A stretch of 64,000 nt of DNA from Eledone cirrhosa (lineage: Eukaryota): assembly GCA_964016885.1 (NCBI GenBank), contig OZ024743.1, positions 183,830,001-183,894,000 of the forward strand. Direction: 5' to 3'. Both the position numbers and the translations under genes were made by a program. A model generated the notes under the pieces. That model saw only the letters and a list, made by a program, of their open reading frames with translations. It searched no databases and was not told the DNA's origin. Shown in pieces: positions 1-59,115 of the stretch (position 1 is its first letter; each line of letters begins with the position of its first letter).

Positions 1-3000
1 CCAAGGGTGTGGTATATGTTGGAATGTGTATAGGTAGCAGTGAGTAGACCAAGGGTGTGGTATATGTTGGAGTGTGTATAGGTAGCAGTGGGTAGACCAA
101 GGGTGTGGTATATGTTGGAGTGTGTATAGGTAGCAGTGGGTAGACCAAGGGTGTGGTATATGTTGGAATGTGTATAGGTAGCAGTAAGTAGACCAAGGGT
201 GTGGTATATGTTGGAATGTGTATAGGTAGCAGTGGGTAGACCAAGGGTGTGGTATATGTTGGAATGTGTATAGGTAGCAGTGGGTAGACCAAGGGTGTGG
301 TATATGTTGGAATGTGTATAGGTAGCAGTGAGTAGACCAAGGGTGTGGTATATGTTGGAGTGTGTATAGGTAGCAGTAAGTAGACCAAGGGTGTGGTATA
401 TGTTGGAGTGTGTATAGGTAGCAGTAAGTAGACCAAGGGTGTGGTATATGTTGGAGTGTGTATAGGTAGCAGTGAGTAGACCAAGGGTGTGGTATAAGTT
501 GGAATGTGTATAGGTAGCAGTAAGTAGACCAAGGGTGTGGTATATGTTGGAGTGTGTATAGGTAGCAGTGAGTAGACCAAGGGTGTGGTATATGTTGGAA
601 TGTGTATAGGTAGCAGTGGGTAGACCAAGGGTGTGGTATATGTTGGAATGTGTATAGGTAGCAGTAAGTAGACCAAGGGTGTGGTATATGTTGGAGTGTG
701 TATAGGTAGCAGTGTGTAGACCAAGTGTGTGGTATAAGTTGGAATGTGTATAGGTAGCAGTAAGTAGACCAAGGGTGTGGTATATGTTGGAGTGTGTATA
801 GGTAGCAGTGAGTAGACCAAGGGTGTGGTATATGTTGGAATGTGTATAGGTAGCAGTGGGTAGACCAAGGGTGTGGTATATGTTGGAATGTGTATAGGTA
901 GCAGTGGGTAGACCAAGGGTGTGGTATATGTTGGAATGTGTATAGGTAGCAGTGGGTAGACCAAGGGTGTGGTATATGTTGGAATGTGTATAGGTAGCAG
1001 TGGGTAGACCAAGGGTGTGCTATATGTTGGAATGTGTATAGGTAGCAGTGAGTAGACCAAGGATGTGGTATATGTTGGAATGTGTATAGGTAGCAGTGGG
1101 TAGACCAAGGGTGTGGTATATGTTGGAATGTGTATAGGTAGCAGTGAATAGACCAAGGGTGTGGTATATGTTGGAATGTGTATAGGTAGCAGTGGGTAGA
1201 CCAAGGGTGTGGTATATGTTGGAATGTGTATAGGTAGCAGTGAGTAGACCAAGGGTGTGGTATATGTTGGAATGTGTATAGGTAGCAGTGAGTAGACCAA
1301 GGGTGTGGTATATGTTGGAATGTGTATAGGTAGCAGTGGGTAGACCAAGGGTGTGGTATATGTTGGAGTGTGTATAGGTAGCAGTGAGTAGACCAAGGGT
1401 GTGGTATATGTTGGAGTGTGTATAGGTAGCAGTGAGTAGACCAAGGGTGTGGTATATGTTGGAATGTGTATAGGTAGCAGTGGGTAGACCAAGGGTGTGG
1501 TATATGTTGGAGTGTGTATAGGTAGCAGTAAGTAGACCAAGGGTGTGGTATAAGTTGGAGTGTGTATAGGTAGCAGTGGGTAGACCAAGGGTGTGGTATA
1601 TGTTGGAATGTGTATAGGTAGCAGTGGGTAGACCAAGGGTGTGGTATATGTTGGAATGTGTATAGGTAGCAGTGAGTAGACCAAGGGTGTGGTATATGTT
1701 GGAATGTGTAAAGGTAGCAGTGAGTAGACCAAGGGTGTGGTATATGTTGGAGTGTGTATAGGTAGCAGTAAGTAGACCAAGGGTGTGGTATAAGTTGGAG
1801 TGTGTATAGGTAGCAGTGGGTAGACTAAGGGTGTGGTATATGTTGGAGTGTGTATAGGTAGCAGTAAGTAGACCAAGGGTGTGGTATAAGTTGGAGTGTG
1901 TATAGGTAGCAGTGGGTAGACCAAGGGTGTGGTATATGTTGGAATGTGTACAGGTAGCAGTGAGTAGACCAAGGGTGTGGTATATGTTGGAGTGTGTATA
2001 GGTAGCAGTAAGTAGACCAAGGGTGTGGTATATGTTGGAGTGTGTATAGGTAGCAGTGGGTAGACCAAGGGTGTGGTATATGTTGGAATGTGTATAGGTA
2101 GCAGTGAGTAGACCAAGGGTGTGGTATATGTTGGAATGTGTATAGGTAGCAGTGAGTAGACCAATGGTGTGGTATATGTTGGAGTGTGTATAGGTAGCAG
2201 TGAGTAGACCAAGGGTGTGGTATATGTTGGAATGTGTATAGGTAGCAGTAAGTAGACCAAGGGTGTGGTATATGTTGGAATGTGTATAGGTAGCAGTGAG
2301 TAGACCAAGGGTGTGGTATATGTTGGAATGTGTATAGGTAGCAGTGAGTAGACCAAGGGTGTGGTATATGTTGGAGTGTGTATAGGTAGCAGTAAGTAGA
2401 CCAAGGGTGTGGTATAAGTTGGAGTGTGTATAGGTAGCAGTGGGTAGACCAAGGGTGTGGTATATGTTGGAATGTGTATAGGTAGCAGTGAGTAGACCAA
2501 GGGTGTGGTATATGTTGGAATGTGTATAGGTAGCAGTGGGTAGACCAAGGGTGTGGTATATGTTGGAGTGTGTATAGGTAGCAGTGAGTAGACCAAGGGT
2601 GTGGTATATGTTGGAATGTGTATAGGTAGCAGTGGGTAGACCAAGGGTGTGGTATATGTTGGAGTGTGTATAGGTAGCAGTAAGTAGACCAAGGGTGTGG
2701 TATATGTTGGAGTGTGTATAGGTAGCAGTGGGTAGACCAAGGGTGTGGTATAAGTTGGAGTGTGTATAGGTAGCAGTGGGTAGACCAAGGGTGTGGTATA
2801 TGTTGGAATGTGTATAGGTAGCAGTGGGTAGACCAAGGGTGTGGTATATGTTGGAGTGTGTATAGGTAGCAGTGAGTAGACCAAGGGTGTGGTATAAGTT
2901 GGAGTGTGTATAGGTAGCAGTGGGTAGACCAAGGGTGTGGTATATGTTGGAATGTGTATAGGTAGCAGTGGGTAGACCAAGGGTGTGGTATATGTTGGAA

Positions 3001-4378
3001 TGTGTATAGGTAGCAGTGAGTAGACCAAGGGTGTGGTATATGTTGGAATGTGTATAGGTAGCAGTGGGTAGACCAAGGGTGTGGTATATGTTGGAGTGTG
3101 TATAGGTAGCAGTGAGTAGACCAAGGGTGTGGTATATGTTGGAATGTGTATAGGTAGCAGTGGGTAGACCAAGGGTGTGGTATATGTTGGAGTGTGTATA
3201 GGTAGCAGTAAGTAGACCAAGGGTGTGGTATATGTTGGAGTGTGTATAGGTAGCAGTGGGTAGACCAAGGGTGTGGTATATGTTGGAGTGTGTATAGGTA
3301 GCAGTAAGTAGACCAAGGGTGTGGTATAAGTTGGAGTGTGTATAGGTAGCAGGGGGTAGACCAAGGGTGTGGTATATGTTGGAATGTGTATAGGTAGCAG
3401 TGAGTAGACCAAGGGTGTGGTATATGTTGGAGTGTGTATAGGTAGCAGTGGGTAGACCAAGGGTGTGGTATATGTTGGAATGTGTATAGGTAGCAGTAAG
3501 TAGACCAAGGGTGTGGTATATGTTGGAGTGTGTATAGGTAGCAGTAAGTAGACCAAGGGTGTGGTATATGTTGGAGTGTGTATAGGTAGCAGTGAGTAGA
3601 CCAAGGGTGTGGTATATGTTGGAATGTGTATAGGTAGCAGTAAGTAGACCAAGGGTGTGGTATATGTTGGAGTGTGTATAGGTAGCAGTAAGTAGACCAA
3701 GGGTATGGTATATGTTGGAATGTGTATAGGTAGCAGTAAGTAGACCAAGGGTGTGGTATATGTTGGAATGTGTATAGGTAGCAGTGAGTAGACCAAGGGT
3801 GTGGTATATGTTGGAGTGTGTATAGGTAGCAGTGGGTAGACCAAGGGTGTGGTATATGTTGGAGTGTGTATAGGTAGCAGTGAGTAGACCAAGGGTGTGG
3901 TATATGTTGGAATGTGTATAGGTAGCAGTGAGTAGACCAAGGGTGTGGTATATGTTGGAATGTGTATAGGTAGCAGTGAGTAGACCAAGGGTGTGGTATA
4001 TGTTGGAGTGTGTATAGGTAGCAGTAAGTAGACCAAGGGTGTGGTATATGTTGGAATGTGTATAGGTAGCAGTGGGTAGACCAAGGGTGTGGTATATGTT
4101 GGAATGTGTATAGGTAGCAGTGAGTAGACCAAGGGTGTGGTATATGTTGGAGTGTGTATAGGTAGCAGTAAGTAGACCAAGGGTGTGGTATATGTTGGAA
4201 TGTGTATAGGTAGCAGTGAGTAGACCAAGGGTGTGGTATATGTTGGAGTGTGTATAGGTAGCAGTAAGTAGACCAAGGGTGTGGTATATGTATAGGTAGC
4301 AGTGGGTAGACCAAGGGTGTGGTATATGTTGGAATGTGTATAGGTAGCAGTAAGTAGACCAAGGGTGTGGTATAAGTT
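1..4378. repeat. 48-bp minisatellite array (~91 copies, continues past window start)
   Basis: Tandem unit ccaagggtgtggtatatgttggaRtgtgtataggtagcagtRRgtaga; variation concentrated at three sites. The long minus-strand ORFs are by-products of the 48-bp (16-codon) period. Confidence 0.98.
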
Positions 4379-6484: not shown

Positions 6485-6539
6485 GTACAAGCCAAAGCTG
6501 AAACATATAGACAGTATACCCTCCTCCTCCTCCCACTGT

Positions 6540-6713
6540 AAAGTGGTCATGTAGGCACCACAAAAATACACCATCCAGTACTCACTGGTAATTAGGTTGG
6601 TCTTAGGAAGGGCATCCAGCTGTAGAAATCAAGCCCAAATCAGTTCTGAATGTGCAAGACATGGTCACCTGACAACCCGTCTAACCCATGCTAGCGTGGA
6701 AGAATGGACATAA
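6540..6713 (+). mobile_element. Octopus-type SINE (3' portion)
   Basis: Contains ggttgg..ttaggaagggcatccagctgtagaaa and aacccgtctaacccatgctagcgtggaa, recognised from memory as an abundant octopus SINE body/tail. Confidence 0.6.
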
Positions 6714-6716
6714 CAA

Positions 6717-7020
6717 CTAGTTAGGAAACTACAAGTACAATCCATTAATGGAACAGTAAAAATATGTAAAACATTCCAAAAATTTTGCATCTAATAACTG
6801 CATATACACATGTACAGATACAAAGCATATACACATGCACACATACAACTCAAAACATACATATCCACACATACAATAACATCCATATCTACACATGCAT
6901 ACATACATATCTACCTAGTTGATGTTGTGTAAATTCCAATGAGAGAGTCTTGTGTCTATGTTAGAAACCGACTCTCTCTCTCTATTGGTAAAACTTTGTG
7001 AAATTATAAAACCAGAAGAA
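6717..7020 (+). mobile_element. 3' remnant of a diverged R4/Dong-clade RLE retrotransposon (copy A)
   Basis: 6717-6794 reads LVRKLQVQSINGTVKICKTFQKFCI*, aligning to the C-terminus of copies B/C (LIHSLQMAAIAGTFKICKTFLRFKG*); different 3' UTR; ends directly at (CATA)n. Confidence 0.8.
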
Positions 7021-7044
7021 CATACATACATACATACATACATA

Positions 7045-8919
7045 TTAAGGCTTTACAGTTAGCTAAAGTCCCACAACCATTGGTAGCTGCTGTTGAACGC
7101 CTGACCAAGAACTGGTACACCAATTTGATCCTTAGAGGTGAGAAGGAGCAGGTTAAGACTGATAAGATACATTACCAGAAGGGCATCTTTCAGGGTGATA
7201 GCTTGTCAGTGCTACTCTTCGTTCTCTCACTGAATCCACTATCTTACCTACTCAGGAAACAAGGTGGACAAAGAAGTGGGCCCAGAAGTATCTCCCATCT
7301 TTTCTTTGTTGATGACCTGAAGCTGTATGGGCCAAAAATCAATGACATCAAGAAACAATTGGACCTCATTACACAATTTTCAACCGACATCAAAATGAAA
7401 TTTGGTGAGTCCAAGTGTGCATATTTGGCAGTAAAACGTGGAAGAGCTGTGCCCTCCTCTAGAAATCTAGAGATGAACGGCCTGACAATACAACCTCTGC
7501 AGTCAGGTGACAACTACAGATATCTTGGACAGGATGAGAATGTCAGATATGATGGACCCATAAATAAGGAGAGAACCAGAACTGTATACCTCAGAAGAGT
7601 AAAGAAAATATGGTCATCAGAACTGTCAGCATACAACAAATACATTGCCCACAATACTTATGCTGTGCCAATTCTAACGCCAACATTTGGCCTGCTGAAC
7701 TGGTCATTGCAAGAACTAAGTGAGATGGATGTTAGAACTCGCAAACTTCTCAGTGTTACTGGGAACTTTAACATCAATGGTGATGTTGATAGGCTATACT
7801 TCTCATGCAAGGAAGGTGGTCGGGGTCTAAAATCAATATTAACAACATATGAGACCCGGATAGTAACACTGAAGCAACACCTTCAACAGAGGAAAAAGGT
7901 TGGCAACCATCTTGCCCAGGTTTATGACCATGAAAAAAGAAATATCATTAGAATAGTGACTGATCTGGAGGAGAGATATGGAATAAAGCCTGATATAAAT
8001 CTCTCACCAAGAGAAATCGGAAGATCCTATTCAATGTTCAAACAAGATAATAAAATTGACCAATTTACAGAAAAAGTTGTGCATGGATACTTGAGGCGTA
8101 AAACACAGACCATAGAGGGGATAAACCACTCAAAAAGCCTGGCATGGAGTTCCGACAAGTTTATGACATCACACCTTGAGGGATATCTCTATGCAATACA
8201 GGAACAAGAACTCCCTACCAAATATCTGCTGCACAAAAGAGGAGGGCCAGCAGCTGACAATAAATGTAGGCTATGTAAAACAAAGATCGAGGATGTAAAC
8301 CACATTGTTGCCAGCTGCGAAAGAATGTCATCTCGTTACTACCTCCCCATGAGACACGATGGGATAGCTAGAACCATCTGGAACGCACTTCGGAAAACAA
8401 AATTAACAACAAACGAGGAAGAATATATTGAGACAGATGGCACTAAGGAATACTGGTGGAACCTGAAAATAAAAACTGCCACCAAATTAAAGCACAACCG
8501 GCCTGATATTGTTGTTTGGGACCACACATTGAAAACGTGTTCTGTTGTGGAGATCAGCTGCCCACTTGATGTAAACGTTGTCAGAAAAATACAGGAGAAG
8601 GAGGACATCTATGGACCATTGATGAGGAGTTTACAAATCCAGTATCCAAGATACACCTTTAGCTTCATACCCACTATTATTGGAGCTATGGGTTATATAC
8701 CAACCCTCTTGGACCAAAGTATGACTGAACTTGGATTTGCGGACAAAAAACGCAGCTCCCTAATTCATAGTCTACAAATGGCTGCGATAGCTGGCACCTT
8801 CAAAATTTGCAAAACATTCTTGCGATTCAAGGGATGACAATTTCTTTTCTTTTACAAACCTTGCCACCAGGAAGGTGGCCGGTCAAAAAAATATACTCGA
8901 AATTAAGAGAAAGAGAAAA
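7045..8919 (+). mobile_element. 5'-truncated R4/Dong-clade non-LTR retrotransposon (RT + CCHC + RLE), copy B
   Basis: Open frame to 8837 with GIFQGDSLS, FVDDLKLY, YRYLG, CRLC..H...C, RHD, RPDIV..D..VEISCP..K..Y; (CATA)n on both sides. Confidence 0.95.
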
Positions 8920-8973
8920 CATACATACATACATACATACATAAATACATACATACATACATACATACATACA

Positions 8974-9354
8974 TGGTGGCTGCCAACTCATTTTCGAGTA
9001 CGGCCACTACTTTATATCCATGTAGGAGAACCCCTACCGATGCGCTGAACGAGTGTGACTTTTTAGTCCAGCCAGCGACTTGAAAACTTTGGTACAAACA
9101 CTACACTTGTGACAATTACTGACACATAGTGCTGGGCCCATGGTACCATGTGACGACAAGTGCAGAGAAATCTCCAGATAGAAAGCAATGCCTGTGCCGT
9201 GAAGCTTTTATAGTGAGCAAAGGCACTGCACAAAGCCAGTCCCACTCTCTTAACCAAGATGATATTTACCAAAAAGAAGAACAAGTCAACATCATTGGAT
9301 ACCATCAGGGTTGCAGGTGTTATATCAGAGTTTTCCTTCTCCTAGAATTCTGCC
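8974..9354 (-). mobile_element. 5'-truncated non-autonomous RTE-related element
   Basis: Near-identical to 31191-31571 and to the copy at 59115; splits a (CATA)n tract. Confidence 0.85.
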
Positions 9355-9412
9355 TACATACATACATACATACATACATACATACATACATACATACATA
9401 CATACATACATA

Positions 9413-12392
9413 GTTGGCAGTTATCTGAAGGCTATACGATCTAAAGGTGTAGAAACGACATTTGAAACGCTTAATGTTTTGTTATATGTTTCAGCTGTCA
9501 CATTGCTATCATATAACACACATCTAAAACCACGCAATCAAGATACAAGCAGAAAGCCTGAACCAGCGTGGATGCGAAATTTAAAAACCAAAATTTTGTC
9601 CCTGAGACGAAGTATCTCACACATCGCAGTCGCTATGAAATGCAACATAGAGAGCAACTTCACACGACACCAGGAAGACCCAAAGAAAAAGTTAGAGAGA
9701 CGATTTGGAGATACAAAATTTAAAACTTTGAACTCCAAATTACACCAGTTGAAACAACAACTCACAGCTACAACAGAAAGACTAAAATATAAGTCAACAG
9801 CACATAAACGACAAGTGCTAAATAGATTGTTTGCCAGAGATCCTAAATCAGTTTATCGCAGCTTCGGTGGCAAAAGCTCAATCTCTGTAAATGACACCCC
9901 TTCAAAAGAACAGGTTGAGAGCTTCTGGAGATCTGTATGGGAAACGGATGACGGATTCAATAGACAAGCTAATTGGCTAAAAGAACTGGAACAGGACTAC
10001 TGCCAACATGTCCAGACAAAACAATATGACATAGATGGGTCAATACTGGAAACAGCTCTACAGAAAATGTCGAATAGGAAATCGCCAGGCCCAGACCTCA
10101 TTACAGGATACTGGTTGAAGAATTTCACTTTCTATCGGCAAGATCTCATACGGCTGTTTACAGAAACCATTAAGGGCACACAAGAACTGCCCAGATGGTT
10201 ATCAACTGCCTCTACTCTCCTCATTCCCCAAAATAGCCAAACCACCCTTGCTAAAAATTACCGCCCAATTGCCTGCCAAAACATCATGTATAAATTATAT
10301 ACTGGGTGCCTTCACCTGTTCTTACAGGATCACTGTGCTACCAACAACATCATAACACCTGAGCAAGCTGGTGGAAAGAGGGAGGTGTGGGGTTGCATAG
10401 ATCACCTACTAACTAACAAAATGATTCAGGAAAAAACAACAAAGAATCGCAGAAACATGACTGTCGTGTGGCTGGACTATCAAAAAGCATTTGATAGTGT
10501 ACCTCATGGGTGGATTGTTAAGGCTTTACAGTTAGCTAAAGTCCCACAACCATTGGTAGCTGCTGTTGAACGCCTGACCAAGAACTGGTACACCAGTTTG
10601 ATCCTTAGAGGTGAGAAGGAGCAGGTTAAGACTGATAAGATACATTACCAGAAGGGCATCTTTCAGGGTGATAGCTTGTCAGTGCTACTCTTCGTTCTCT
10701 CACTGAATCCACTATCTTACCTACTCAGGAAACAAGGTGGACAAAGAAGTGGGCCCAGAAGTATCTCCCATCTTTTCTTTGTTGATGACCTGAAGTTGTA
10801 TGGGCCAAATATCAATGACATCAAGAAACAATTGGACCTCATTACACAATTTTCAACCGACATCAAAATGAAATTTGGTGAGTCCAAGTGTGCATATTTG
10901 GCAGTAAAACGTGGAAGAGCTGTGCCCTCCTCTAGAAATCTAGAGATGAACGGCCTGACAATACAACCTCTGCAGTCAGGTGACAACTACAGATATCTTG
11001 GACAGGATGAGAATGTCAGATATGATGGACCCATAAATAAGGAGAGAACCAGAACTGAATACCTCAGAAGAGTAAAGAAAATATGGTCATCAGAACTGTC
11101 AGCATACAACAAATACATTGCCCACAATACTTATGCTGTGCCAATTCTAACGCCAACATTTGGCCTGCTGAACTGGTCATTGCAAGAACTAAGTGAGATG
11201 GATGTTAGAACTCGCAAACTTCTCAGTGTTACTGGGAACTTTAACATCAATGGTGATGTTGATAGGCTATACTTCTCATGCAAGGAAGGTGGCCGGGGTC
11301 TAAAATCAATATTAACAACATATGAGACCCGGATAGTAACACTGAAGCAACACCTTCAACAGAGGAAAAAGGTTGGCAACCATCTTGCCCAGGTTTATGA
11401 CCATGAAAAAAGAAATATCATTAGAATAGTGACTGATCTGGAGGAGAGATATGGAATAAAGCCTGATATAAATCTCTCACCAAGAGAAATCGGAAGATCC
11501 TATTCAATGTTCAAACAAGATAAAAAAAATTGACCAATTTACAGAAAAAGTTGTGCATGGATACTTGAGGCGTAAAACACAGACCATAGAGGGGATAAAC
11601 CACTCAAAAAGCCTGGCATGGAGTTCCGACAAGTTTATGACATCACACCTTGAGGGATATCTCTATGCAATACAGGAACAAGAACTCCCTACCAAATATC
11701 TGCTGCACAAAAGAGGAGGGCCAGCAGCTGACAATAAATGTAGGCTATGTAAAACAAAGATCGAGGATGTAAGCCACATTGTTGCCAGCTGCGAAAGAAT
11801 GTCATCTCGCTACTACCTCCCCATGAGACACGATGGGATAGCTAGAACCATCTGGAACGCACTTCGGAAAACAAAATTAACAACAAACGAGGAAGAATAT
11901 ATTGAGACAGATGGCACTAAGGAATACTGGTGGAACTTGAAAATAAAAACTGCCACCAAATTAAAGCACAACCGGCCTGATATTGTAGTTTGGGACCACA
12001 CATCGAAAACGTGTTCTGTTGTGAAGATCAGCTGCCCACTTGATGTAAACGTTGTTAGAAAAATACAGGAGAAGGAGGACATCTACGGACCATTGATGAG
12101 GAGTTTACAAATCCAGTATCCAAGATACACCTTTAGCTTCATACCCATCATTATTGGTGCTACGGGTTATATACCAACCCGCTTGGACCAAAGTATGACT
12201 GAACTTGGATATGCGGACAAAAAGCGCAGCTCCCTAATTCATAGTCTACAAATGGCTGCGATAGCTGGCACCTTCAAAATTTGCAAAACATTCTTGCGAT
12301 TCAAGGGATGACAATTTCTTTTCTTTTACAACCTTGCCACCAGGAAGGTGGCCGGTCAAAAAAATATACTCGAAATTAAGAGAAAGAGAAAA
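9413..12392 (+). mobile_element. 5'-truncated R4/Dong-clade retrotransposon, copy C (frameshift near 11525)
   Basis: KSPGPD, NYRPIAC, WLDYQKAFDSVPH, GIFQGDSLS, FVDD, CCHC and RLE motifs; nearly identical to copy B; frameshift in an A-run; (CATA)n on both sides. Confidence 0.95.
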
Positions 12393-12426
12393 CATACATA
12401 CATACATACATACATACATACATACA

Positions 12427-12457
<31 letters not shown>

Positions 12458-12490
12458 CAGCTCTACCCTCCCTCTGCCGTGGCTACCGTA

Positions 12491-13257
12491 ACTATTGGTA
12501 TGAGTCATAAATAATTTTCATATTTTAAAAGCAAGTTGTAATTACGCAGCATTTCAAACTTCCAGCGTTTTACACGTAACCGGAAATAACCTGATTAGAG
12601 AGAGAGTCTTCAACAGTCATTCTTATTTCATTAGTGAAAGGGTGCGTATCATAATTTAATCTATGATTTCACACCCCTAACATGGAGGAACTGAAAGTGC
12701 ATATTCGACTCGTAATGTTGTGGGAGTTTAAGAATAACAAAAATACCACAGAAGCAGCTGAGAAAATGTGTAGTGTTTATGGCCAAGGTGTCATTACTGA
12801 CCGCCAAGTCTGAAACTGGTTTTCAATGTTTAATTCTGGGGATACGTTATTGAGAGATGAATCCAGACCAGAACGCTCATCAGACCTCGATCAAGATGCT
12901 TTAAGAGAATTGGTGGAATGCAATCCGCGCAAAAGTACTCAAGAATTAGCATTTGACCTCAACACATCCCAATCCACAATCTGCCGCCATTTGGAAAAGA
13001 TAGGAAAAGTGAGCAAACTGAGTGTTTGGGTTCCTCAAACTCTTAGTGAGAAGAATAAGGAAGATCACATATCCATAGTGACATGTCTTCTTTCAATGCA
13101 GAGAAATGATCCGTTTCTTGAGAATATCATCACAGGTGATGAAAAATGGGTCTTTTATGACAATGTTCAATGCAAAAGACAATAGATTGACATGGATGAA
13201 TCTCCGCAGTCTACTCCAAAGGCGGAGCTTCGTGGAAGAAAAGTTATGCTATGTATC
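12491..13257 (+). mobile_element. Truncated mariner transposon (transposase pseudogene, ATG at 12682)
   Basis: MEELKVHIRLVMLWEF...WVPQTL...IITGDEKWV...KVMLC with internal stops; C-terminal half absent. Confidence 0.9.
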
Positions 13258-14683
13258 ACAGGTCAAATGGTATGTATGTTTATCATACTTGTTTCTTGAC
13301 AGAGCGATCGTGGGAAACTCGCGATAATGGGTGGTCTCAGAGGCGAGAAACCACCGGTAAAACATAGGAGTATTCCGTTATACAGTCATTACCCAAGATT
13401 CATAAGCCTAGGTAAGGGTTGGCACGAATACCGAATTGAAGATAGCGAGTTTGGCTTTTACACCTACCTCTCTTTTTTTCTGATTACTGACTGCTGAAGC
13501 TGGCGCATTACTGCCGTACGTAACATAGACATATTTTCAACAATATCACCGATACCCTTTAGAAAACTAATTCTAGTACTTACCATGCCTTGAATATAGA
13601 AGCAGAAGAAATAGATACCAGTTTTACCATAGACGATAGAGTAGAAACTTTGGCGCTTCAAAAGTTGCATATTAGATTAAAAAGTCATAAAGATAGTTTT
13701 ATTACCAAACCCAAATGTACATGAATAAATCCAAGGAAAAATGATATAACTAGGGTAAGTAAAATTATTTTAGATTTCATATGTGATAAGCCTTTCTCTT
13801 TCGTTATGGAATCATAGCTTATCAATAGTTATCATGTATTTCATGGTATAGATAATAATATTTATGTTGTTCGATATACTATCTAAATATATCTGAGATT
13901 AACGGATTAATTTATTATAGAACAATTTGTCTATCATGGTATTTCAGTAGGCCTTAGAAGGCTTGTGGGGGTGTCCATCTCCTCTCCAGGCATTAAGTCA
14001 CTCACTAAGTTTTGCCTGCCAGCAAAAGCAGTTTCTTGGGTGTGGCTACAACAATTTTCGGAGCCAATAGTAAGAGTCAGGTGAAAACCAATGTATCCGT
14101 CTATCGCTAAGGATGTCGTAGACATCAAGGTATTCTCTCTACCCGAACACCTCAACAACTTATTATTATAGAACAAGCGTTCACCTACACTAATAGCTTC
14201 AGAATAAAAGGTCGAAATTGGTGAATTCTTGCAGACATTGATATTTGTCGAGGAATTTTCCGTAACCAAACTGGCTAAAATAGTTTATTTTCCACACCAT
14301 GAATTTTCTATTCCCTGAAAGATAGTTAGTATTTTGGGGGAAAATATCCAGATATTCATCACCAGTAAAGCTTTAGTAACAATAGCCACGTTTGTTTTTG
14401 ATATTGTGTCTATTACACATATGTTACTGAAGAAAGGAAAATATGTGTTCTTTGTATCACAATTAAAAAGACGGACACGTGATGTATTTTCAAAAGGTTT
14501 TTCGCAACCGATCAAATATCGATGTTATCACATTTCGATTTATTTATGAATAATTGTGCTTATACACAGTCATGCTGCTTCCCTTCTTTAGTCGTTCGAA
14601 TAATCGGCAATGTAATACTCAGACAAACGATTCAATTTTCAGCTTCTAATAATAATGCTGTGTCTCTTGGAAATGATGATGAG

Positions 14684-15449: not shown

Positions 15450-17533
15450 CAAATTGGAAGAGCCCCGGCCCAGATGGTGTCCAAAAATATTGGAAGGAGG
15501 ATTTGAAATGTTTCCATTTAAGGGTTGTCTATGGGATCAGACAGTTCCGGAATGGATGACAACAGGAAAGACGTTATTCTGTCTTAAAGATACAGAAAAA
15601 GATAATGTATGAAACTTTTGGCCCTTTATAGGAGCATTGACCGAGGAATTTGTGTACCTTAAATAAACAAAGTTGCTGCTAACTGAGCAGAAGGGATGTA
15701 GAAAGTGAAGTAGGGGAACGAAAGACCAACTTTTGATTGATAAGATGGTAATTTGGAATTGCAAAATGACACATCTATTTAAGCATGGCTTGGATTGACT
15801 ACGGTAAAGAATAGGATTTTAATCCACATTCATGAATAGAAAGGATTATGAAAATGTAAAGTGTGGCAGAAAACATGAGAGATTTAATGTGCAGTAGTTC
15901 AGAAACATTAGCTTATGTACGAATTAAACGAGGAATATTTCAAAGTGATAGTTTATCACCCGTTCTATTTGTACTGGTAATTGTTCCTCTAAGGGATATC
16001 TTAAAGAAAACAAAGCTAGGATATGACTTGGGAAATGAAAAAGGGAAGCTGAATAATCTATTATTGATGGATGACCTAAAGTTGCGAAGAATGTGAAAGA
16101 ATTGGAGACTTAGTGTATACAGTAGAAGATATTAAAATGGAATGTTGTCTCTCAAATGATGCGACAATGGTCATGAGGAAAGATCAAAAGGATGGAGAAA
16201 GCAAAAATGCCTAAAGGGGAAATGATGAGATATATGGAACCAGGGACAGGTTACAAATACCTAGGGTTGTTGGAGGCTGGTGGCATTAAACAATAGACGA
16301 TGAAGGAGATGACACAGAAAGTGTATCTTAGGAGAGTGCGGAAAATACTTGGATCAAAACTGAATGTGAGAAACATGTTATAGCAGTTACAACTGTGCTA
16401 TAGAGGGAAGGAGGGGACAGATGGTGAATTGAAGGATTTAGATAAACACAAAAATTACTGACAATATATGGAACACAGAGAGATTACACATTAAACTGGC
16501 AAACTGGTGCAGGGGGTTGTAGAGGATTGTGTTAGGGTTGAGGAGGATTGCTTATTGAAATACTTGTCTGAAAGCAATGAAATATTGTTGGTAACAGTAT
16601 GAGAGGAAACGCCCTTTAAAGCTAGCGACAGAGAAAAAACTAAATATGGGATACAAGAGGAACATACAAAAGCAGCGCTTAACAAAGAACTACACCAACA
16701 ATTTCACAGTGTGACAGTTGAAGTAACAGAATAACGAAGATGGAATTCGTTAAAAAAAAAGCGCACTGAAAAAGGAAACTGAGAGTACGATCTTTGAAGC
16801 TGAAGATCATGCACTGGTCACTGACTGTCATGTTGACAAAAGAAACTAACAAGTATCTCCTTTGTGTAGATTGTGCAATGAGTACGATGAAACAATATCA
16901 TATTGTTTATGAATGTTCTAAACTTGTGGAAAACCAATACAAGCTGCGGCAGCATGATGAGTTTGTAAAGATAATACACTGGAAGTTGTGTGAGAAATGG
17001 GAATTTGAAAGAGGAAAGACCTTGCATGATCATAAGACCCAAAGAGAATTGAATCAGAAATGTGTTGAACTTTTAGGATTTTCCAATACAGACTGACCAA
17101 AAATTAGAACACAATAAATCAGACAAAACAGTGGTTGACAAGGTTAACAAGATATTCCTATTAGCTGATGTGGTTTACCCATTTGATTGAAGAATAACAT
17201 TGAAAGAAGCAGAAAAGGAAGAAACTTACAACTTCTTGAAATAGGAGTTGCACTGATATGGAATATGAAGTATTTCGAGATAGTAGCGGTACTTGTGGGA
17301 GAATTGGGAAGACAAAAAATATGGAAAGACACCTAAGGAAAATTACCATTATATGTCCAGTTAAACTATTGCAGAAAAGATGGCTTCTTGGAACAACCAA
17401 GATAACCAGAGAAATTCTTGACAATTGGACGGTATATGTACATCATGGTATTGTAGGCTGCAGGCAGCAAGCTTGCTACCCATGCTAATATCAGGATTTA
17501 CATCTAAGCCAGAGTAAAACCATAATAATAATT
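15450..17533 (+). mobile_element. Decayed R4/Dong-like RLE retrotransposon
   Basis: Fragments NWKSPGPDG, GIFQSDSLSP, LMDDLKL, YKYLG, RQHD and LLQKRWLLGT with many stops and frameshifts; ends in a short (TAA)n. Confidence 0.85.
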
Positions 17534-20626: not shown

Positions 20627-22877
20627 ATTGTTATACTTGGGGAGGGTCATATTTGTGTAATATTGCCAGAATTAATAACAGAACACACTCACTGTTTGGT
20701 TGGTTTTCGCTTCTCGCTGTCTTTTATATCGGTAATCTAACTTACTCGGTCCTCAATGTTGCCATTGACTGACCGACGGTCAAAAATAATACAGATACAA
20801 TATAGACACAAACACATATATATAGTTTATCATAAATCTTTCGTTGCACATCTGCCATGACCTTAGATGTTTCTGCCCTAGTAGACCTATAAGAGGTAGA
20901 CCCCCTACCATAACCTCAATGGCAAAAAAGACTCCCATGGGAAGGTGGATTGGGTGGACCAAAGCTATACGGACCCCCCAAAACAATGATCGGGTAAGAA
21001 AAATGGTCGCACATGCAATAGGGGCTAGTATCAAAACTACCCTAAAGGACCACATATTTAAGTTCAACGAGAAAATCTACACCCAAAATGAGGGAGCAGT
21101 CATCCGCGTCAGCATAGCTGGTGATGTTGCCAACCTTTTCATGGTATGGTGGGAAAAGAGACTTAAAGATCTCCTTGATGAAAGCTACATAGACCTCATC
21201 ATGTACTCTCGTTATGTAGACGATATCAATATAGTTATAAGAACACCCCCACTAGAGAGCACTAACAAGTTTGATTTAGAACGTAGCATGATGGAAAGCA
21301 TCCAGCAGATAGCTAATTCCATACACCAGAGTATAACTGTAACTATCGACTTCCCTTCCAAACACCCTAACAATAGACTACCTGTATTAGACACAGAACT
21401 CTGGATTAACACTATAGACGAGAGAGCCCAAATTCTCCACTCACACTATGCTAAACCCATGGCCTCCAAATACCTGATACTCAAAAACTCAGCAATGTCC
21501 AGTAGTGCTAAGTTTAATATTCTGATCGCAGATTTGGTACGACCCAACAGAAATGGAAAGACACATCCAACACTTCATCAACCGCATGCAGTTCTCTGGC
21601 TACAACCAAAGAGACAGAGTCAGAGTATACGAAGAAGCCATGGAAAAGTATAAGACCCTCATAGAACTGGACATGAAAGGAATTTGCCCATTATACAGGA
21701 GCAAATCATGGAATAGCTTAGATAGGGCTAGACATAAGATAGGGAAAGCCACCTCATGGTACGACAACCAGAGATACCAGAGTGTCATGTTTGTGGACGC
21801 CACCCCTGGAGGGAAATTAGCTAACCAGTGTAGAAAGGCCCTGAGAAAGACCCACTTAAAAATAAAGGTGGTAGAAAAGCCAGGAATCACCATAAAATCC
21901 CTGATCAGCAAAACCTACCCTTTTAAGAAAACACACTGTACCAATAGGAAATGTATCATATGTAAGGTGAACCCCCGGATAAACTGTAAAACTAGAAACG
22001 TAGTCTATAGCATAAGATGTACAGAGGGTACTTGCAGAAACATGACAACAACATACATAGGTGAGACAGCTCGTAGCATAGGTGAAAGGATAGACCAACA
22101 CTGGGGGGAACTAAAAGGACGAACAAACGGGTCAGTACTATACGAACATGCTAGACAACAACATGACGGTAACATAGACAACATAGAAATTAGAATAATA
22201 TCTAAACATAGAAATGACCCAGCAGATAGGCAAATCAGAGAGGCCAGTGAAATATAAATTAGAAGACCAAAGCTAAACAGAAAGAATGAATGGAATAACA
22301 ACACCCAAACAAACAACACTGACCTAAGAGAAGTATAAATAAATAAATAAAATAAGATAAATAAATAAATAAATACATACACAAGCACAATAACAACAAG
22401 CACATAAACACACACTAGTCACCCATCACACAGCAAACATAACACTATACACACACGCAAACGCATGCGCAAAGAAGACGAAATAAAATAAACAAACAAG
22501 CAAATAAATAAATAAATATATAGACAGACTGAATAAAAATGGCGTAGACATACAACACAACAGGAGGAAAATATAACACCACTGACGATGTTGCAGATGT
22601 GCAACGATAGATTTATGATAAACTATATATATGTGTTTGTGTCTATATTGTATCTGTATTATTTTTGACCGTCGGTCAGTCAATGGCAACATTGAGGACC
22701 GAGTAAGTTAGATTACCGATATAAAAGACAGCGAGAAGCGAAAACCAACCAAACAGTGAGTGTGTTCTGTTATTAATTCTGGCAATATTACACAAATACG
22801 ACCCTCCCCAAGTATAACAATATTTGTTTCGACACACGATTTCATATAAAAAACCTCGCAAAACTAATTCATCGCCG

Positions 22878-23270: not shown

Positions 23271-26200
23271 CAGGTTATCAATAATGTAGTGATAATATAT
23301 CGTCACGTTAGAGATGAACAGCGTACGTGTAGGTTTGCTCAACAAGTATAAATTATATTCCGGAGAAAATGTAGAAAAGATGAATATAAAATGAAAGTGC
23401 TTTTTTTTTAAAAGGAATTTATTAGGTATTGACATATGTTTCTGTAACAGACGGAATACCTATGTATCGCTGCTTGCGTAATCATATAATGTTAGCAAGT
23501 ATTCGATAGCAAATGTATAATCAGTTGTTATTTCTTCAGAGATATTGGATAAATTGGAAAAAATCAGAAAAATTGAAGTATTTATATTAGTTGTAATAAA
23601 GGAAGAAGAGAGGGGATAGTATATGACAGATGGCAATTCAATTTACTGGTAAACAAGTATATAAAGGGTTTCTAATGAGAATACAATAAGTATATGGTTT
23701 ATTTTATCTAAATAAGAATTTTTGGGACTGCCTATTTTAATCTATACTTGACCAATTGAACAATGGACAGGGCTGGTCGTTTGGTGTAGTAGTATTAATT
23801 ATAAAGTGTCAATTAAGGAAGAGGGAGATTTTCACTGCTACTGAATAACAACAATTCTGGTAGCCTGCTGGTATATGCATTAGGGAATTGAATTAAGAAA
23901 TCTCATTTTATCTATAGCAGTTTATATTAAATGGTAAAGAATAGAAGAGTTGATAGAATTAAGACTAATAGAGAATGTTAATATGTATTTTGACAATCAA
24001 ACGGAGATGGAGACAGGCGTTCAATCCTGGTAGTGTTTTTAATATGAAAATGTAAATTTTAAGCGATGGTTACAGTATAACGATCGCTCTATTCTGTTAT
24101 TTAATAAAATATTTTTGGATTTCATAATACAAAATAATTCCATATTACACAATTTACAAAATTCTTGTCCGTGGGATATGGAAGGGCAGTACTATTATAT
24201 CCCATTTTAGGTTAAATTGTTGGTTATTTTCGCGCAGCTGCCAAGCCTTGTCTGCGAGTGTTGTTACATAACGCTGGTTTTCATGTTTTATCGAGTAACG
24301 ATGTCTATAAAGGCGAGATTTGAAGGAGGTGGCTGTAGACCCCACATAGTACCACTTCTGGCTATCCGATTCGATAGTACATTTGTATATGATGTTGCGT
24401 TCAAGACACTGATTGTTCAACGGACACATTCCTGGTTGGACACAGTTACAGTTATAATTTTGCGTTGTTGTATTGGCATGGATGGGTTGATGAGGTTGCT
24501 TAGGCAGGACGGGATGTTTTTTGTTGTTTTGTGATGTTATAGCTGATGTTTTACGTGTATTGTTATGTGTTGGAAGGCGTTTATACAACCGTTTTGCGTT
24601 AAGCTTTTTTATATGTTGTTCAATATTAGGGGCGGTTGAATATGAAAGTCGAATAGTGTTAGGGTTTAAGATTTTATTATATTTATGTGATGTTGGAAAG
24701 TGTTTTTTAACTAATTGAAAGAATTGTGAGGGTAGATTGGTTTTAATAGAGTTGTTATAGACCGGGTTGTACCATATATACTCTTTACATCGCCTTCTGT
24801 TTGGTGGTGTGCGACTATTAGTGTGTCTATTGCGGTAGTGTATGTATGGTGGTGATTCTATGCTATTTCTACCTCTATGAGATTTATTTTGGGTGTTTTG
24901 GTGATCGTCGACTATATACTCTATATTATCTAGGTGTCCAGCCTTCCTAAGTGCATCATCATAATATTCGGCATGTTCTTTGAAGGTTTGCTGGTTGGAC
25001 GACAGGCGGGAGATTCTAAGGGAAATATTTCTAGGGATGGATTTAATAATAGAGGGTGGATGGTTAGAACTCGTATTTACATATTTAAGGTTCTCATTTA
25101 GTTTATGGAACGGTTTAATCGTTTCTGTATTGAGATTCAAAGTAACATCAAGGAAATTAACCTCTTTGAGGTTATATTCAAATGTAATATTTAATCCTAG
25201 TTCCTTAAAGAGCTTTCTGATATTTTTACGCATCCTTTCTAAATTCTGGTTATTCATATGCTTAACTAATAGGAGCGCATCGTCACGGTAGATTCCACCG
25301 TGGAGATCCTTGAATTTTCCTTGTAGTCTGTGGGTGATATAAATTCCCACAGGATCAGTTACTTCCGCCGAATCATTGGAACCCATAGTAATATCAAAAT
25401 TAGAAGGTCTATCTTTGCGAACCCAGTAGCTATCATCAAATTTAATAGTTTTCCTCGCTTCCATAATAATATTAATTTCAGCATCCGTAAGGTCGGAATT
25501 AGCCTTAGCGAACGAAAGAGCTTCATGTAGAGTATCAGGTGAAATTGAGGAATAATATTCATCAATATCAAACTGAATAAATTTTGATTTTTTTCTTATC
25601 AGTAATGCTATTAAACCATCTTATTGCCTCATGGGTGTTACCCCATAGTTTAATATCTACTTTAGCCTTAACTTGGGGGATAATTCTGTCTAGTATATAT
25701 TTGCTAATTTTACCTATATCAGATTTAGAGGAGCATATAAGTCTAATTTTAGGGTCAGTATCGAAGTTTACCTTGTGGTCCTTCAGGTTGAAGGATGGTG
25801 TAGCTGGTGTTAAGGGTTGCGTTCTATCGTCAATACAAAGTTTTTTAACAATTTCACATGCCGAGTTGTTGATGTTTTTAAGTGTAGCTTCATTAGTTTT
25901 CTTGTATTTTTTATGCAATTCCTTACGGATGAAGTTATTGTAAGTGTCCACATCCATGGTATATACGTTTGATGCTTTGTCTGCTCTAACAATAATTCCA
26001 TTGGCGTTTTTTAGATTATTGAGCAGTGCCGTGATGTCATTCTGTAGTTTATTGTTTTTCTCTTTTGTAAATTTGATCTCCATGATCATATCCATTAGGT
26101 CTTGTTCAAATGCATCCAAAAGTGGGTTTGAAGGTGGGTTTTTGTAAGATTTAAATCCAAATTTATCCTTGTTAAGATCCGATGTTTGGTTTATACGGCT

Positions 26201-26587
26201 TTTGTCAAAATTGAATGTTTTCCATCTGATTCGTCGAATAAAATCATTGGTCCTTCGTATCATACCTAGAATATATTCCTTTTTTGCCTGAATAGGTATG
26301 TTTTTTAACGACATATCCAATTGGTGCCTTTCCATTTTAGAGGCGTATGCTGAATTAGTTGCTCAACTGTATAGGAGATTATTAAAATTTCAGGTTATCA
26401 ATAATGTAGTGATAATATATCGTCACGTTAGAGATGAACAGCGTACGTGTAGGTTTGCTCAACGAGTATAAATTATATTCCGGAGAAAATGTAGAAAAGA
26501 TAGGTATTCCGTCTGTTACAGAAACATATGTCAATACCTAATAAATTCCTTTAAAAAAAAAAGCATTCATTTTATATTCATCTTTTT
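23266..26587 (-). mobile_element. Full-length Penelope-like element (Naiad-like), frameshifted
   Basis: ATG at 26335 (SLKNIP), RT GIYRDD, YNPVY, CNC..CPL..C, IIY...YVG, and CKLC/C.H in an alternative frame ending near 24040. Direct pLTR repeat 23266-23381/26386-26501 plus inverted segment 26501-26587. Confidence 0.93.
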
Positions 26588-27912: not shown

Positions 27913-29350
27913 CATACATATATACATACACACATACATACACATACACTCACACATATATACACACATACATTAATAACAACAATAATAATAATAAAAA
28001 TAATAATAATAGCAATAACACACACCACACACACATACACACACGATAGCAACTAACAGTGCTGCGATCGAATGTGGCTTTTTAGCCCAGCCAATGATCT
28101 AAAATGTCTTGCACAGAGTCGGCAACCAAAACATTCACTGGGAATAGTCGGCTGTGGTTGGAGTTCGTGTACTTTTGCATGTCGCTTGAGACCTCCTGCT
28201 GATTTACATTCTCTACCACATGTTTGGCAAGCATGATGAGTAGCATCTCCAACAGCAGCCTGGTAGTCAACCACTGGTCTTACTTTATGACTGCGAAGAT
28301 GACTTTCGAGTCCAGCTTTGCTTAGGCAGAGTCTCGCACAGACGCTGCATGTCAGAACCATAGGAGGACCCTCGCCGTCTGGAAGTGCAACAGCAATGCC
28401 CTTCCCCACGTCCCGCTTTACTTTCTCGTGTGCGATTCGAGATGCCTCAAAGGCAACTTTTCCCTCATATACAGTCTTTCTCCATTTATTACGATCAGCA
28501 GCAATATTTTCCCGTGTATCAGCAGAGATGTTAGCGTCTTTCAGAGAGGCTTTCAAGGAATCCTTATACCTCTTTTTTGGTTTATGTGGCGGTCGTTTTC
28601 CTTTAACCAACTCTCCATAGAGGAGTTGTTTTGGTATTCTAGAATCCTTCATCCTGACAAGGTGACCACTCCAACGGAGTCGTTGCTTAAGCACAAGAGC
28701 TTCTATACTGTCACACATAGAGCTTTCCAAAATCTCGACATCACTGATGTGGTCCCTCCAGTGAACGCCATGGATCCGTCTGAGACACATCTGATGTAAA
28801 CGCTCCAATTGCTTAAGGTGGCGTCGATATGTGACCCAGGTCTCGCAGGCATAAAGAAGACAAGAGAGTACACATGCCCTGTACACCTTTACCTTTGTCC
28901 TCCTGCATATGTGTCGCCGACCCCAGAGTCGCCTTTCCAGCTTTCCGAAAGCATCACTTTCTTTCCTAATCCTAAGTGAGATTTCACTGTCAAGGTTGCC
29001 GTATCGATTGACAGTGCTTCCCAGGTAGACAAACTGATCAACCACTCCAAGTCGTTTGCCATACACATAGATGTTTGGTTCAGTGTACTGCTTACTAGGG
29101 GCAGGTTGGTACATGACGACGGTTTTCTTGAGACTGACAGTCAAACCCAGGGCAGTGCAAGCGTCAGAAAATACATTCAAAATGTGCTGCATATCACTCT
29201 CTGTGTGCACTACAAGATCGCAATCATCTGCATACAAGAGGTCTCTTATGACTGATGTAAATACTTTTGTCTTCGCAGCAAAGCGCCTGATGTTAAATAT
29301 GCTGCCTGAGGTTCGATATCGGATGTAAACACCATGCTCGCAATTCCTGA
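27765..29350 (-). mobile_element. 5'-truncated RTE-clade LINE with three C-terminal C2H2 zinc fingers
   Basis: ORF to stop at 28053: LLYADDC, FVYLGS, CLLYACETW, RLRWSGHLVRM..RIPKQLLYGEL, three CxxC-x12-HxxxH motifs; 3' terminal hairpin ctcg-ataa-cgag. Confidence 0.93.
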
Positions 29351-29440
29351 ATGCAATACAGAAAACCATTGGTACTCTCTTTTGTTGACTCCGTGGACAG
29401 CCATAACTCTATGCTGTAAAGCAATTATAGTAATACTGGA

Positions 29441-30994: not shown

Positions 30995-32145
30995 ATTAGA
31001 ATTGGAGCTCTGAAATAGCAATATATATATGGATGTATATATAATGTATTTTGTAATACACTTTATGCTTAATTAAAAGCATTTTGAAGACCGTATGCTA
31101 TTGTTTTAGAGTAGTGACAAATTCACTTACTTTAATCTCAGCAAACAGGGGAGATTTAAGCATAAAGTGTATTGCAAAATACATTATATATGGTGGCTGC
31201 CAACTCGTTTTCGAGTACGGCCACTACTTTATATCCATGTAGGAGAACCCCTACCGATGCGCTGAATGACTGTGACTTTTTAGTCCAGCCAGCGACTTGA
31301 AAACTCTGGTACAAACACTACACTTGTGACAATTATTGACACATAGTGCTGGGCCCATGGTACCATGTGAGGACAAGTGCAGAGAGATCTCCAGATATAA
31401 AGCAATGCCTGTGCCGTGAAGCTTTTATAGTGAGCAAAGGCACTGCACAAAGCCAGTCCCACTCTCTTAACCAAGATGATATTTACCAAAAAGAAGAACA
31501 AGTCAACATCATTGGATACCATCAGGGTTGCAGGTGTTATATCAGAGTTTTCCTTCTCCTAGAATTCTGCCTTGACAAAGGCTAAGGGGTCATCTCTCCC
31601 GGTGATTTTGGATGGCCATTGACTCTTAAGAGCTCCTTTGCCCTTTGACAGGTTTTGTTTTTAGTCCTGCAGGATGTCCAAAGTCACCCTCCTCACCAAG
31701 AAACCTTGGTGGGGTTGCCAGTTTAGTCGCCAACGACCCGACCATGAGACAGGTTGTACTGGGATACATGTTACCAGTAGCACCAACTGGTGACCTGACA
31801 TAAAACATTATATATACATCCATATATATATTGCTATTTCAGAGCTCCAATTCTAATTTTTAATTTCTGCCTGACCAACAATCGCTCTGTATAATCAGCT
31901 CCTGATTATTTATTAGAATTCTATAAGAATATAACATCAGTAATCTCAGTAGACAGGAGGGGTAGTTAGCCTTGATAAGCTTCAACAAAAGCGAAACAAG
32001 CCCCTTGTCGGCTTATCTCCCCTGTTTGCTGATATTAAAGTAAGTGAATTTGTCACTACTCTAAAACAATAACATACGGTCTTCAAAATGCTTTTAATTA
32101 AGCATAAAGTGTATTACAAAATACATTATATATACATCCATATAT
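30995..32145. repeat. pLTR-like tandem/inverted repeat with degenerate hammerhead (31968-32013), interrupted by the RTE-related element
   Basis: 30995-31155 is inverted relative to 31806-31857 and 32015-32145; motif agcc-TTGATAA-gctt..aagc-GAAA-caagccccttGTC-ggct. Confidence 0.7.
31191..31800 (-). mobile_element. Full ~610-bp non-autonomous RTE-related element
   Basis: Three copies in window; flanked by a putative target duplication acattatata; minus strand has RTE 5'UTR-like ggagaaggaaaactctga and a 3' end matching the RTE end at 27765. Confidence 0.85.
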
Positions 32146-46757: not shown

Positions 46758-46819
46758 TACAGACACACACACAACACAAACAGGCTTATACACATACACT
46801 CTCCCTAATGAGGAAAGAG

Positions 46820-48680
46820 TATACACACAAGAACTGTCTCCCAGTTGTAGTAAGAGTAATCACACATAAGAACTCTCTCCCAGTTGTAGTATGAGTATAC
46901 ACACATAAGAACTCTCTCCCAGTTGTAGTATGAGTATACACACAAGAACTGTCTCCCAGTTGTAGTAAGAGTAATCACACATAAGAACTCTCTCCCAGTT
47001 GTAGTATGAGTATACACACACAAGAACTCTCTCCCAGTTGTAGTATGAGTATACACACATAAGAACTCTCTCCCAGTTGTAGTAAGAGTAATCACACATA
47101 AGAACTCTCTCCCGGTTGTAGTATGCGTATACACACATAAGAACTCTCTCCCAGTTGTAGTATGAGTATACACACATAAGAACTCTCTCCCAGTTGTAGT
47201 AAGAGTAATCACACATAAGAACTCTCTCCCAGTTGTAGTATGCGTATACACACAAGAACTCTCTCCCAGTTGTAGTATGAGTATACACACATAAGAACTC
47301 TCTCCCAGTTGTAGTATGAGTATACACACATAAGAACTCTCTCCCAGTTGTAGTAAGAGTAATCACACATAAGAACTCTCTCCCGGTTGTAGTATGCGTA
47401 TACACACAAGAACTCTCTCCCAGTTGTAGTATGAGTATACACACATAAGAACTCTCTGCCAGTTGTAGTATGAGTATACACACACAAGAACTCTCTCCCA
47501 GTTGTAGTATGAGTATACACACATAAGAACTGTCTCCCAGTTGTAGTATGAGTATACACACATAAGAACTCTCTCCCAGTTGTAGTATGAGTATACACAC
47601 ATAAGAACTCTCTCCCAGTTGTAGTATGAGTATACACACATAAGAACTCTCTCCCAGTTGTAGTATGAGTATACACACATAAGAACTCTCTCCCAGTTGT
47701 AGTATGAGTATACACACATAAGAACTCTCTCCCAGTTGTAGTATGAGTATACACACATAAGAACTCTCTCCCAGTTGTAGTATGAGTATACACACATAAG
47801 AACTCTCTCCCAGTTGTAGTATGAGTATACACACATAAGAACTCTCTCCCAGTTGTAGTATGAGTATACACACATAAGAACTCTCTCCCAGTTGTAGTAT
47901 GAGTATACACACATAAGAACTCTCTCCCAGTTGTAGTATGAGTATACACACATAAGAACTCTCTCCCAGTTGTAGTATGAGTATACACACATAAGAACTC
48001 TCTCCCAGTTGTAGTATGAGTATACACACATAAGAACTCTCTCCCAGTTGTAGTATGAGTATACACACATAAGAACTCTCTCCCAGTTGTAGTATGAGTA
48101 TACACACATAAGAACTCTCTCCCAGTTGTAGTATGAGTATACACACATAAGAACTCTCTCCCAGTTGTAGTATGAGTATACACACATAAGAACTCTCTCC
48201 CGGTTGTAGTATGAGTATACACACATAAGAACTCTCTCCCAGTTGTAGTATGAGTATACACACATAAGAACTCTCTCCCAGTTGTAGTATGAGTATACAC
48301 ACATAAGAACTCTCTCCCAGTTGTAGTATGAGTATACACACATAAGAACTCTCTCCCAGTTGTAGTATGAGTATACACACATAAGAACTCTCTCCCAGTT
48401 GTAGTATGAGTATACACACATAAGAACTCTCTCCCAGTTGTAGTATGAGTATACACACATAAGAACTCTCTCCCAGTTGTAGTATGAGTATACACACATA
48501 AGAACTCTCTCCCGGTTGTAGTATGAGTATACACACATAAGAACTCTCTCCCGGTTGTAGTATGAGTATACACACATAAGAACTCTCTCCCAGTTGTAGT
48601 ATGAGTATACACACATAAGAACTCTCTCCCAGTTGTAGTATGAGTATACACACATAAGAACTCTCTCCCAGTTCTAGTTA
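46820..48680. repeat. 39-bp minisatellite array (~47 copies)
   Basis: Unit cacacataagaactctctcccagttgtagtatgagtata; shorter variant units on the left, homogeneous on the right. Confidence 0.98.

Positions 48681-57043: not shown

Positions 57044-58634
<1,591 letters not shown>

Positions 58635-59114: not shown

Positions 59115-59115
<1 letters not shown>

Follow-up and report, generated by a model that had tools for sequence, protein, structure and literature searches.

The stretch analysed here, referred to as the window, comprises 64,000 nucleotides (nt) of the genome of Eledone cirrhosa (contig OZ024743.1, positions 183,830,001 to 183,894,000; G000:C4:183830001-183894000 in our numbering). 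Copies of its elements were searched for throughout about 3.0 Gb of this genome. Between positions 6713 and 12456 the window contains a stack of retrotransposon insertions separated by arrays of the four-base repeat (CATA)n. Three of these insertions, here called A, B and C, represent two young R4/Dong-type families (family A on the one hand, family BC on the other) that enter (CATA)n in a single direction, likely by means of a protein that binds the repeat and nicks its TATG strand. We give this reading a probability of about 0.88.

Organization of the stack

The features of the stack and one related element outside it are the following:

6713..7019, + strand: A, the last 305 nt of the second Dong-type family (end of the open reading frame (ORF) and a 3' untranslated region (UTR) of ~230 nt), young, 5'-truncated
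7020..7044, + strand: (CATA)6 array separating A from B
7045..8919, + strand: B, 5'-truncated copy of family BC, from family position 2351 to the end
7047-8837, + strand: open frame of B, with the end of the reverse transcriptase (RT), a CCHC knuckle and a restriction-like endonuclease (RLE)
8920..8973, + strand: (CATA)n with a single impurity (~14 units), flanking B at its 3' end and D on its tail side
8974..9355, - strand: D, positions 227-608 (5'-truncated) of a non-coding element of 608 nt that derives from an RTE and has a (TGTA)n tail
9356..9412, + strand: (CATA)14 array separating D from C
9413..12392, + strand: C, 5'-truncated copy of family BC, from family position ~1243 to the end, with the whole RT
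12393..12456, + strand: (CATA)16 array, 3' flank of C
15450..17532, + strand: Dong-type relic, old and broken, from a different lineage, outside the stack, with a short TAA run at its end

Perfect CATA arrays of at least four units occur seven times in the 64-kb window, and five of them lie at junctions of the stack. The initial annotation of this stretch had described three insertions on the same strand, each directly followed by (CATA)n, with B and C also starting right after it. These insertions and junctions are as described, but a fourth insertion, D on the minus strand, had been overlooked. The 5' flank of A holds a single CATA unit only. The run of A reported before each array comprises only 2-4 bases, varies between subfamilies and is not a poly(A) tail: the last bases of 75 BC ends are AAA in 36 cases, TAA in 26 and others in 13. 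The frame of C is shifted by one extra base near 11522.

The arrays as insertion target

The flanks of BC and A copies were tabulated genome-wide with queries devoid of the repeat. Each 5' junction was scored on the 24 nt preceding it and counted as positive if at least half of these positions were in CATA phase. The background was estimated from forty 10-kb pieces of the genome, sampled at round coordinates, in which 8313 of 798080 24-mers were positive (1.04%). Against this background, (CATA)n precedes 79/96 BC and 43/59 A junctions; the copies within the window and a few local duplicates are part of these counts. The enrichment exactly at the junction is thus ~70- to 80-fold. The possibility of arrays occurring only at the 3' end, next to unrelated 5' flanks, is thereby refuted, and the target preference proposed to be common to two families is found in both. 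The 5'-truncated copies alone give a similar picture (57/74 for BC, with 72 breakpoints, and 36/52 for A, with 45), as does an independent sample chosen with an outgroup protein, in which the 5' array is present in 20/20 BC and 9/13 A copies. Among the intact young BC copies, all 15 located 5' ends carry the array. Intact 3' ends are followed by it in 64/81 BC and 36/48 A copies, the misses being mostly short arrays. The direction is strict, since the reverse repeat (TATG)n was found in 0/96 BC and 0/60 A 5' flanks (0/156 together), and the 3' register is fixed, the element end being followed by A-CATA. At the 5' junctions, microhomology averages 2.0 nt (n=61) versus 0.8. Finally, both flanks have an impurity type in common in 18 of 91 pairs, compared with 9.8 +/- 2.4 in shuffled pairs (p 0.0013), which suggests that the arrays predate the insertions. 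Target-site duplications are not readable within the arrays.

Several observations weigh against this interpretation. The impurity levels of the two flanks are uncorrelated (rho 0.14, p 0.17), and TA runs account for 12 of the 18 impurities found on both sides. No array was detected at 33 5' junctions. At 16 of them the adjoining upstream sequence is again BC, A or D (breaks or joins); the remaining 17 lack such sequence, and only 2 of these were seen to be internal breaks. A single exception to the direction was found, an A-like 3' end (L351) that stops 9 nt short and is followed by the reverse repeat. No empty site was seen among the loci. The 9-11 nt past the 3' end of family A are as conserved as the element itself, with a CATA-phase match of 0.91-1.00, and the RNA may therefore supply some of the 3' array. 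Lastly, the matches behind the Myb-like assignment of the N-terminal domain discussed below have Z scores of just 5-5.7.

The conserved bases past the A end are also an argument for the most serious alternative, in which a loose nuclease would be guided by base pairing, the (CATA)n 3' end of the RNA annealing to the nicked TATG strand, with the result that priming would occur only at nicks within arrays. D, an element of unrelated origin, displays similar targeting together with a matching tail, which points in the same direction. Nevertheless, the 3' flanks of BC are more variable (from the second base onwards, the CATA-phase match per position is 0.76-0.95), and several copies (L005, L137 and L065) have hardly any 3' array in spite of a long 5' one. 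Moreover, RLE clades are mostly target-specific (PMC4640811). Base pairing as the driver of targeting therefore seems unlikely, although it can act alongside a protein-based mechanism.

A second scenario would see the arrays as tails written by the elements themselves; a 5' array would be the tail of a copy lying upstream, to which template jumping had joined the next one. In agreement with this, another Dong 3' end immediately precedes 29 of 123 upstream arrays (18/79 for BC and 11/44 for A), and there is a triple tandem whose copies have the same breakpoint. Yet 86 of the 123 arrays follow other sequence (8 are too long to tell), impurities are common to both flanks, and the stack contains members of three families, oriented both ways, which makes this scenario very improbable. 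The same counts bear out in part the proposal of the initial annotation that each insertion leaves target for the next. Stacks fit the splitting of arrays by insertion, but the presence of a 5' array does not depend on stacking. Triple head-to-tail BC copies sharing one 5' breakpoint were observed at L374-L375 (G000:C3:199889000-199908000) and L056-L058. They probably result from local tandem duplication of element, array and D fragment.

The third alternative concerns the window itself: B and C could be one copy duplicated by an assembly error or in tandem, as they are neighbours and near-identical, as first reported (98.8% over 1876 nt, with 21 substitutions and 2 single-base indels). However, C is equally close (98.9%) to a copy on another contig (L136), and the 5' breakpoints of B and C differ (2351 versus 1243), each copy having its own array and D lying between them. 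B and C are therefore separate insertions, and their duplication is hardly credible. Four read runs examined over 6500-12700 contained no piece bridging the locus. Random insertion followed by survival or accumulation of copies in arrays, or by later growth of arrays beside them, would be conceivable in a microsatellite-rich genome and has a precedent in the passive build-up proposed for Drosophila Waldo (PMC3812793), but the enrichment at the junction, the strict direction and the 15/15 arrays at the youngest intact 5' ends leave it next to no probability.

Two further observations were made at these junctions. The flanks of L177, L178 and L340 include CCTA, CTTA or CATC units, hinting at a variant-tolerant target. 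At L124:479-620, a BC copy apparently entered at a CATAC within the first 75 nt of another copy, which resulted in a doubled 5' end.

Families BC and A

Full-length copies were found for both families. The BC element measures ~4.2 kb (L140) and contains a single ORF, which in L137 encodes 1163 amino acids (aa). Pfam recognizes only RVT_1 (E 5e-24) and zf-RVT in this protein, with neither N-terminal zinc fingers nor an apurinic/apyrimidinic-type (APE) endonuclease domain. The C-terminal features are a CCHC knuckle (C-x2-C-x8-H-x4-C) and a PD-(D/E)xK motif of the RLE, whose fold matches that of R2. The knuckle and the RH, PD, D and K residues of the nuclease are conserved in 47 aligned proteins (C974, C977, H986, C991, R1003, H1004, P1053, D1054, D1075 and K1085). 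In the structure model (predicted local distance difference test, pLDDT, 85.7) the N-terminus consists of three helices and a disordered linker.

A search with the outgroup protein recovered an open frame of 1174 codons in 28 of 135 rows. Eighteen of these 28 BC copies, selected for their long frames, were fetched, and all 18 have an ORF of 1169 aa. Fourteen copies aligned end to end are 0.07%-1.7% apart, and the closest pairs lie on different contigs; family BC is therefore very young. The intact BC copies (L357-L373) have 5' UTRs of two lengths, ~200 nt apart. Reads of 11 runs from 8 organisms contain at least 0.28 of the words of the BC element, and in one of the four runs examined (X7, from another organism, among X1, X3, X7 and X8) the consensus beyond the BC 3' end continues into CATA. 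The closest named protein comes from Argonauta hians (60%).

Full-length family A copies measure ~4.0 kb (L144). Their protein is ~50% identical to that of BC overall, with 42-57% in most RT/RLE segments and 27-44% in the N-terminal part, and the A piece of the stack shares 56% aa with the end of B. This piece had been taken for a diverged remnant, but it is 97.7% identical to L144 and 97-99% identical to its 39 other best genome matches (40 matches lie at 97-100%). A is thus a short copy of a second young family and is not decayed. The recent activity suggested at first for this lineage is borne out in both families.

A possible mechanism of insertion

In R2, reverse transcription is primed by the strand that the protein has nicked. 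By analogy, the BC and A proteins would bind the repeat, nick its TATG strand and copy the RNA in from the nick by target-primed reverse transcription, which would make their endonuclease microsatellite-specific, as the initial annotation proposed. The fixed 3' register would place the nick on the TATG strand, and one or two CATA units at the 3' end of the RNA may help priming. Insertion would split the array and leave target on both sides, so that stacks could build up. D enters these arrays in the opposite direction, and further target is likely contributed by its (TGTA)n tails.

The target may be read by an N-terminal Myb-like domain of three helices together with the RLE, which makes the N-terminal domain a candidate for setting the target. 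These helices (residues 17-69) are modelled with a pLDDT of 79 and weakly resemble Myb/SANT domains and domains that bind telomere repeats: their top VIA matches include TRF1, Zeste, GT-1, NgTRF and ISWI, with Z scores of 5.1-5.7 that lie below the tool's trust level. Foldseek and Pfam gave no significant match for this domain. In members of the branch described below, the Myb-like tryptophan is preceded by a basic motif of the RRxNRxY type. For the whole BC protein, the best matches in the PDB are R2 (sequence E 1e-27; Foldseek E 3e-35, template modelling (TM) score 0.58), and no R4-clade structure appeared among the sequence and fold matches in this database.

A hepatitis delta virus (HDV)-like ribozyme was also looked for. 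Rfam, run on the stack and the BC 5' end, returned repeat-driven matches only, and a descriptor scan found none in BC, A or L247, both tests being insensitive. The descriptor allowed no more than a loose parse, in D only.

Relatives of the two families

Eighty related metagenome loci were found, and the flanks were read for the 43 with long matches. A phylogeny by IQ-TREE (33 of 74 rows) groups BC, A, four of these loci and ten database proteins in one branch (support 100/100), and FastTree on all 74 rows agrees with it. The database proteins (P-numbered) make up 10 of the 17 rows of this branch and stand outside the flank reading. The branch is long-stemmed and sister to TAA-flanked elements and lepidopteran relatives. 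Of the loci outside it, 20/39 have (TAA)n-type flanks, and single ones have CAA, TTA, AT, CT, AG or ATG runs, so that Dong-like flanks are not TAA alone. Inside the branch, one locus has (CTTA)n on both sides (L247) and one on its 3' side (L249), evidence that comes from two contigs with one copy each; the other two (L246 and L248) show no array before their contigs end. The protein searches and the cluster look-up returned no named R4, Dong or Rex6 references. Two long branches (L306 and L315), which we take to be ribosomal DNA (rDNA) elements, served only for drawing the trees.

The relic at 15450 was excluded from the trees (163 aligned residues). Its aa identity is ~30-50%, in short pieces, and its family is old, with matches of 72-80% among the best rows. 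Its proposed TAA ending corresponds to a short run at 17522-17532, in common with the end of a neighbouring SINE-like (short interspersed element) repeat. Among relic-family loci with a 3' region, a clear TAA run is present in 8/14, often continuing into the same SINE-like repeat.

Comparison with known systems

Judged by their architecture, BC and A can be assigned to the R4/Dong clade, although they do not share the (TAA)n target of Dong proper. The described Dong elements (Bombyx Dong, DongAg, the snail DongBg and the ostracod Dong1/2) likewise have a single ORF with RT and RLE, lack N-terminal zinc fingers and insert into microsatellites (PMC7998251, PMC3812793). Their target is (TAA)n in most insects, molluscs and cnidarians (PMC7998251), whereas that of BC and A is (CATA)n and that of two other branch members (CTTA)n. 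The divergent Myb-like N-terminal domain of Dong (PMC7998251) has a counterpart in BC only as the low-Z model match mentioned above. No counterpart of the 5' HDV-like ribozyme of Bombyx Dong (PMC3774820) was found in BC or A by the insensitive scans described above. The long stem of the branch and its basic motif further set BC and A apart from Dong.

Five Dong-R4 families with 1129 recent insertions are reported from O. vulgaris (PMC13282606) and a full-ORF Dong consensus from O. bimaculoides (PMC9115989); Dong-R4 LINEs (long interspersed elements) in Octopus also appear in PMC8967140. These elements are recently active like BC and A, and the excerpts read from the three papers do not state their target site. 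The BC and A families may be among those contained in the supplements of PMC13282606 or in the figure alignment of PMC7998251. WaldoAg1/2 and WaldoFs1 target ACAY microsatellites, including (ACAT)n (PMC3812793). Waldo belongs to the R1 clade and uses an APE endonuclease, so that an overlapping target is combined with an unrelated nuclease and clade, and the target it has in common with BC and A is convergent. R2 is the best solved relative of BC and its mechanistic model, but at <20% identity, and differs from BC in its rDNA target and its N-terminal zinc fingers and Myb domain.

It is already in print that Dong targets (TAA)n, that Dong is active in octopus and that Waldo targets ACAY. What appears to be new is a Dong-type repeat-seeking element aimed at a four-base instead of a three-base repeat; no CATA or CTTA target for R4/Dong was found in the literature searched, a scope that leaves aside Repbase, Dfam, subscription papers and supplements. 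A wider scenario may be put forward tentatively, being on balance rather doubtful as a whole: an old, undescribed sister branch of Dong would have switched from TAA to C(A/T)TA by means of the basic arm and Myb-like domain at its N-terminus, it would remain active in octopods and have the arrays in common with an RTE-derived parasite on the other strand, the tails of this parasite would resupply the target, and retroelements would in this way renew their (CATA)n landing pad.

The TAA, CATA and CTTA elements form a natural series of RLE proteins that are related to one another, and intact, very young copies are plentiful. This series allows one to ask how an R2-like enzyme devoid of zinc fingers recognizes a short repeat and how the length of that repeat can change, and it bears on the richness of octopod genomes in microsatellites and nested repeats. 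It also carries a warning that (CATA)n markers in octopods often have repetitive flanks.

Element D

The D copy of the stack covers the last 382 of the element's 608 nt and is 99.2% identical to a full copy, and 40 genome matches reach at least 98%. Its remnant of a C2H2 finger shares 46% aa identity (E 3e-9) with an RTE-type LINE of the window (28053-29408), and its last 33 nt are 85% identical to the same LINE. Going by its 3' part, which was compared, D fits the bipartite non-autonomous RTE type, whose members are short and non-coding, with an RTE-derived 3' part and a microsatellite tail (PMC5786205). D is likewise short and non-coding, with an RTE-type 3' end and, as its microsatellite tail, (TGTA)n. 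Copies are cut at the far end and the RTE finger lies on the minus strand, so D was rejected as a candidate 5' end of a Dong family. The 5' part of D presumably resembles an RTE 5' end, and no partner LINE was found for it.

The junctions of D mirror those of the Dong-type families, with TATG-sense repeats in 73/96 5' and 62/89 3' flanks and CATA-sense ones in 0. The targeting of D is looser than that of BC and A, since (TA)n is also used in 14/49 loci that were not chosen via Dong. A 400-kb random sample contains three full D copies and four partial ones at 94% or more.

The window has two full-length D elements (31191-31798 and 59115-59719, - strand) with short or TA-rich arrays and no adjoining Dong copy. 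The RTE-type LINE at 28053-29408 (- strand) is a 3' part with several C2H2 fingers and a 3' end like that of D.

Other features of the window

Frames at 20826-22257, 24154-26362 and 33263-34802 presumably belong to Penelope-like elements (RT and GIY-YIG); two of these candidates were scanned, with no Pfam match. Remnants of Mariner-like and Tc1-like transposases lie at 12760-13260 and 57358-58305. Positions 1-4378 are occupied by a tandem satellite of 48 bp (91 copies, 95% matches) with a strong GC skew, and a long tandem repeat at 46805-48792 is open in several minus-strand frames. An uninterrupted frame of 652 codons at 44151-46109 (+ strand) matches a thermolysin-like M4 metallopeptidase with an FTP propeptide (Pfam), a bacterial-type family within an animal genome.

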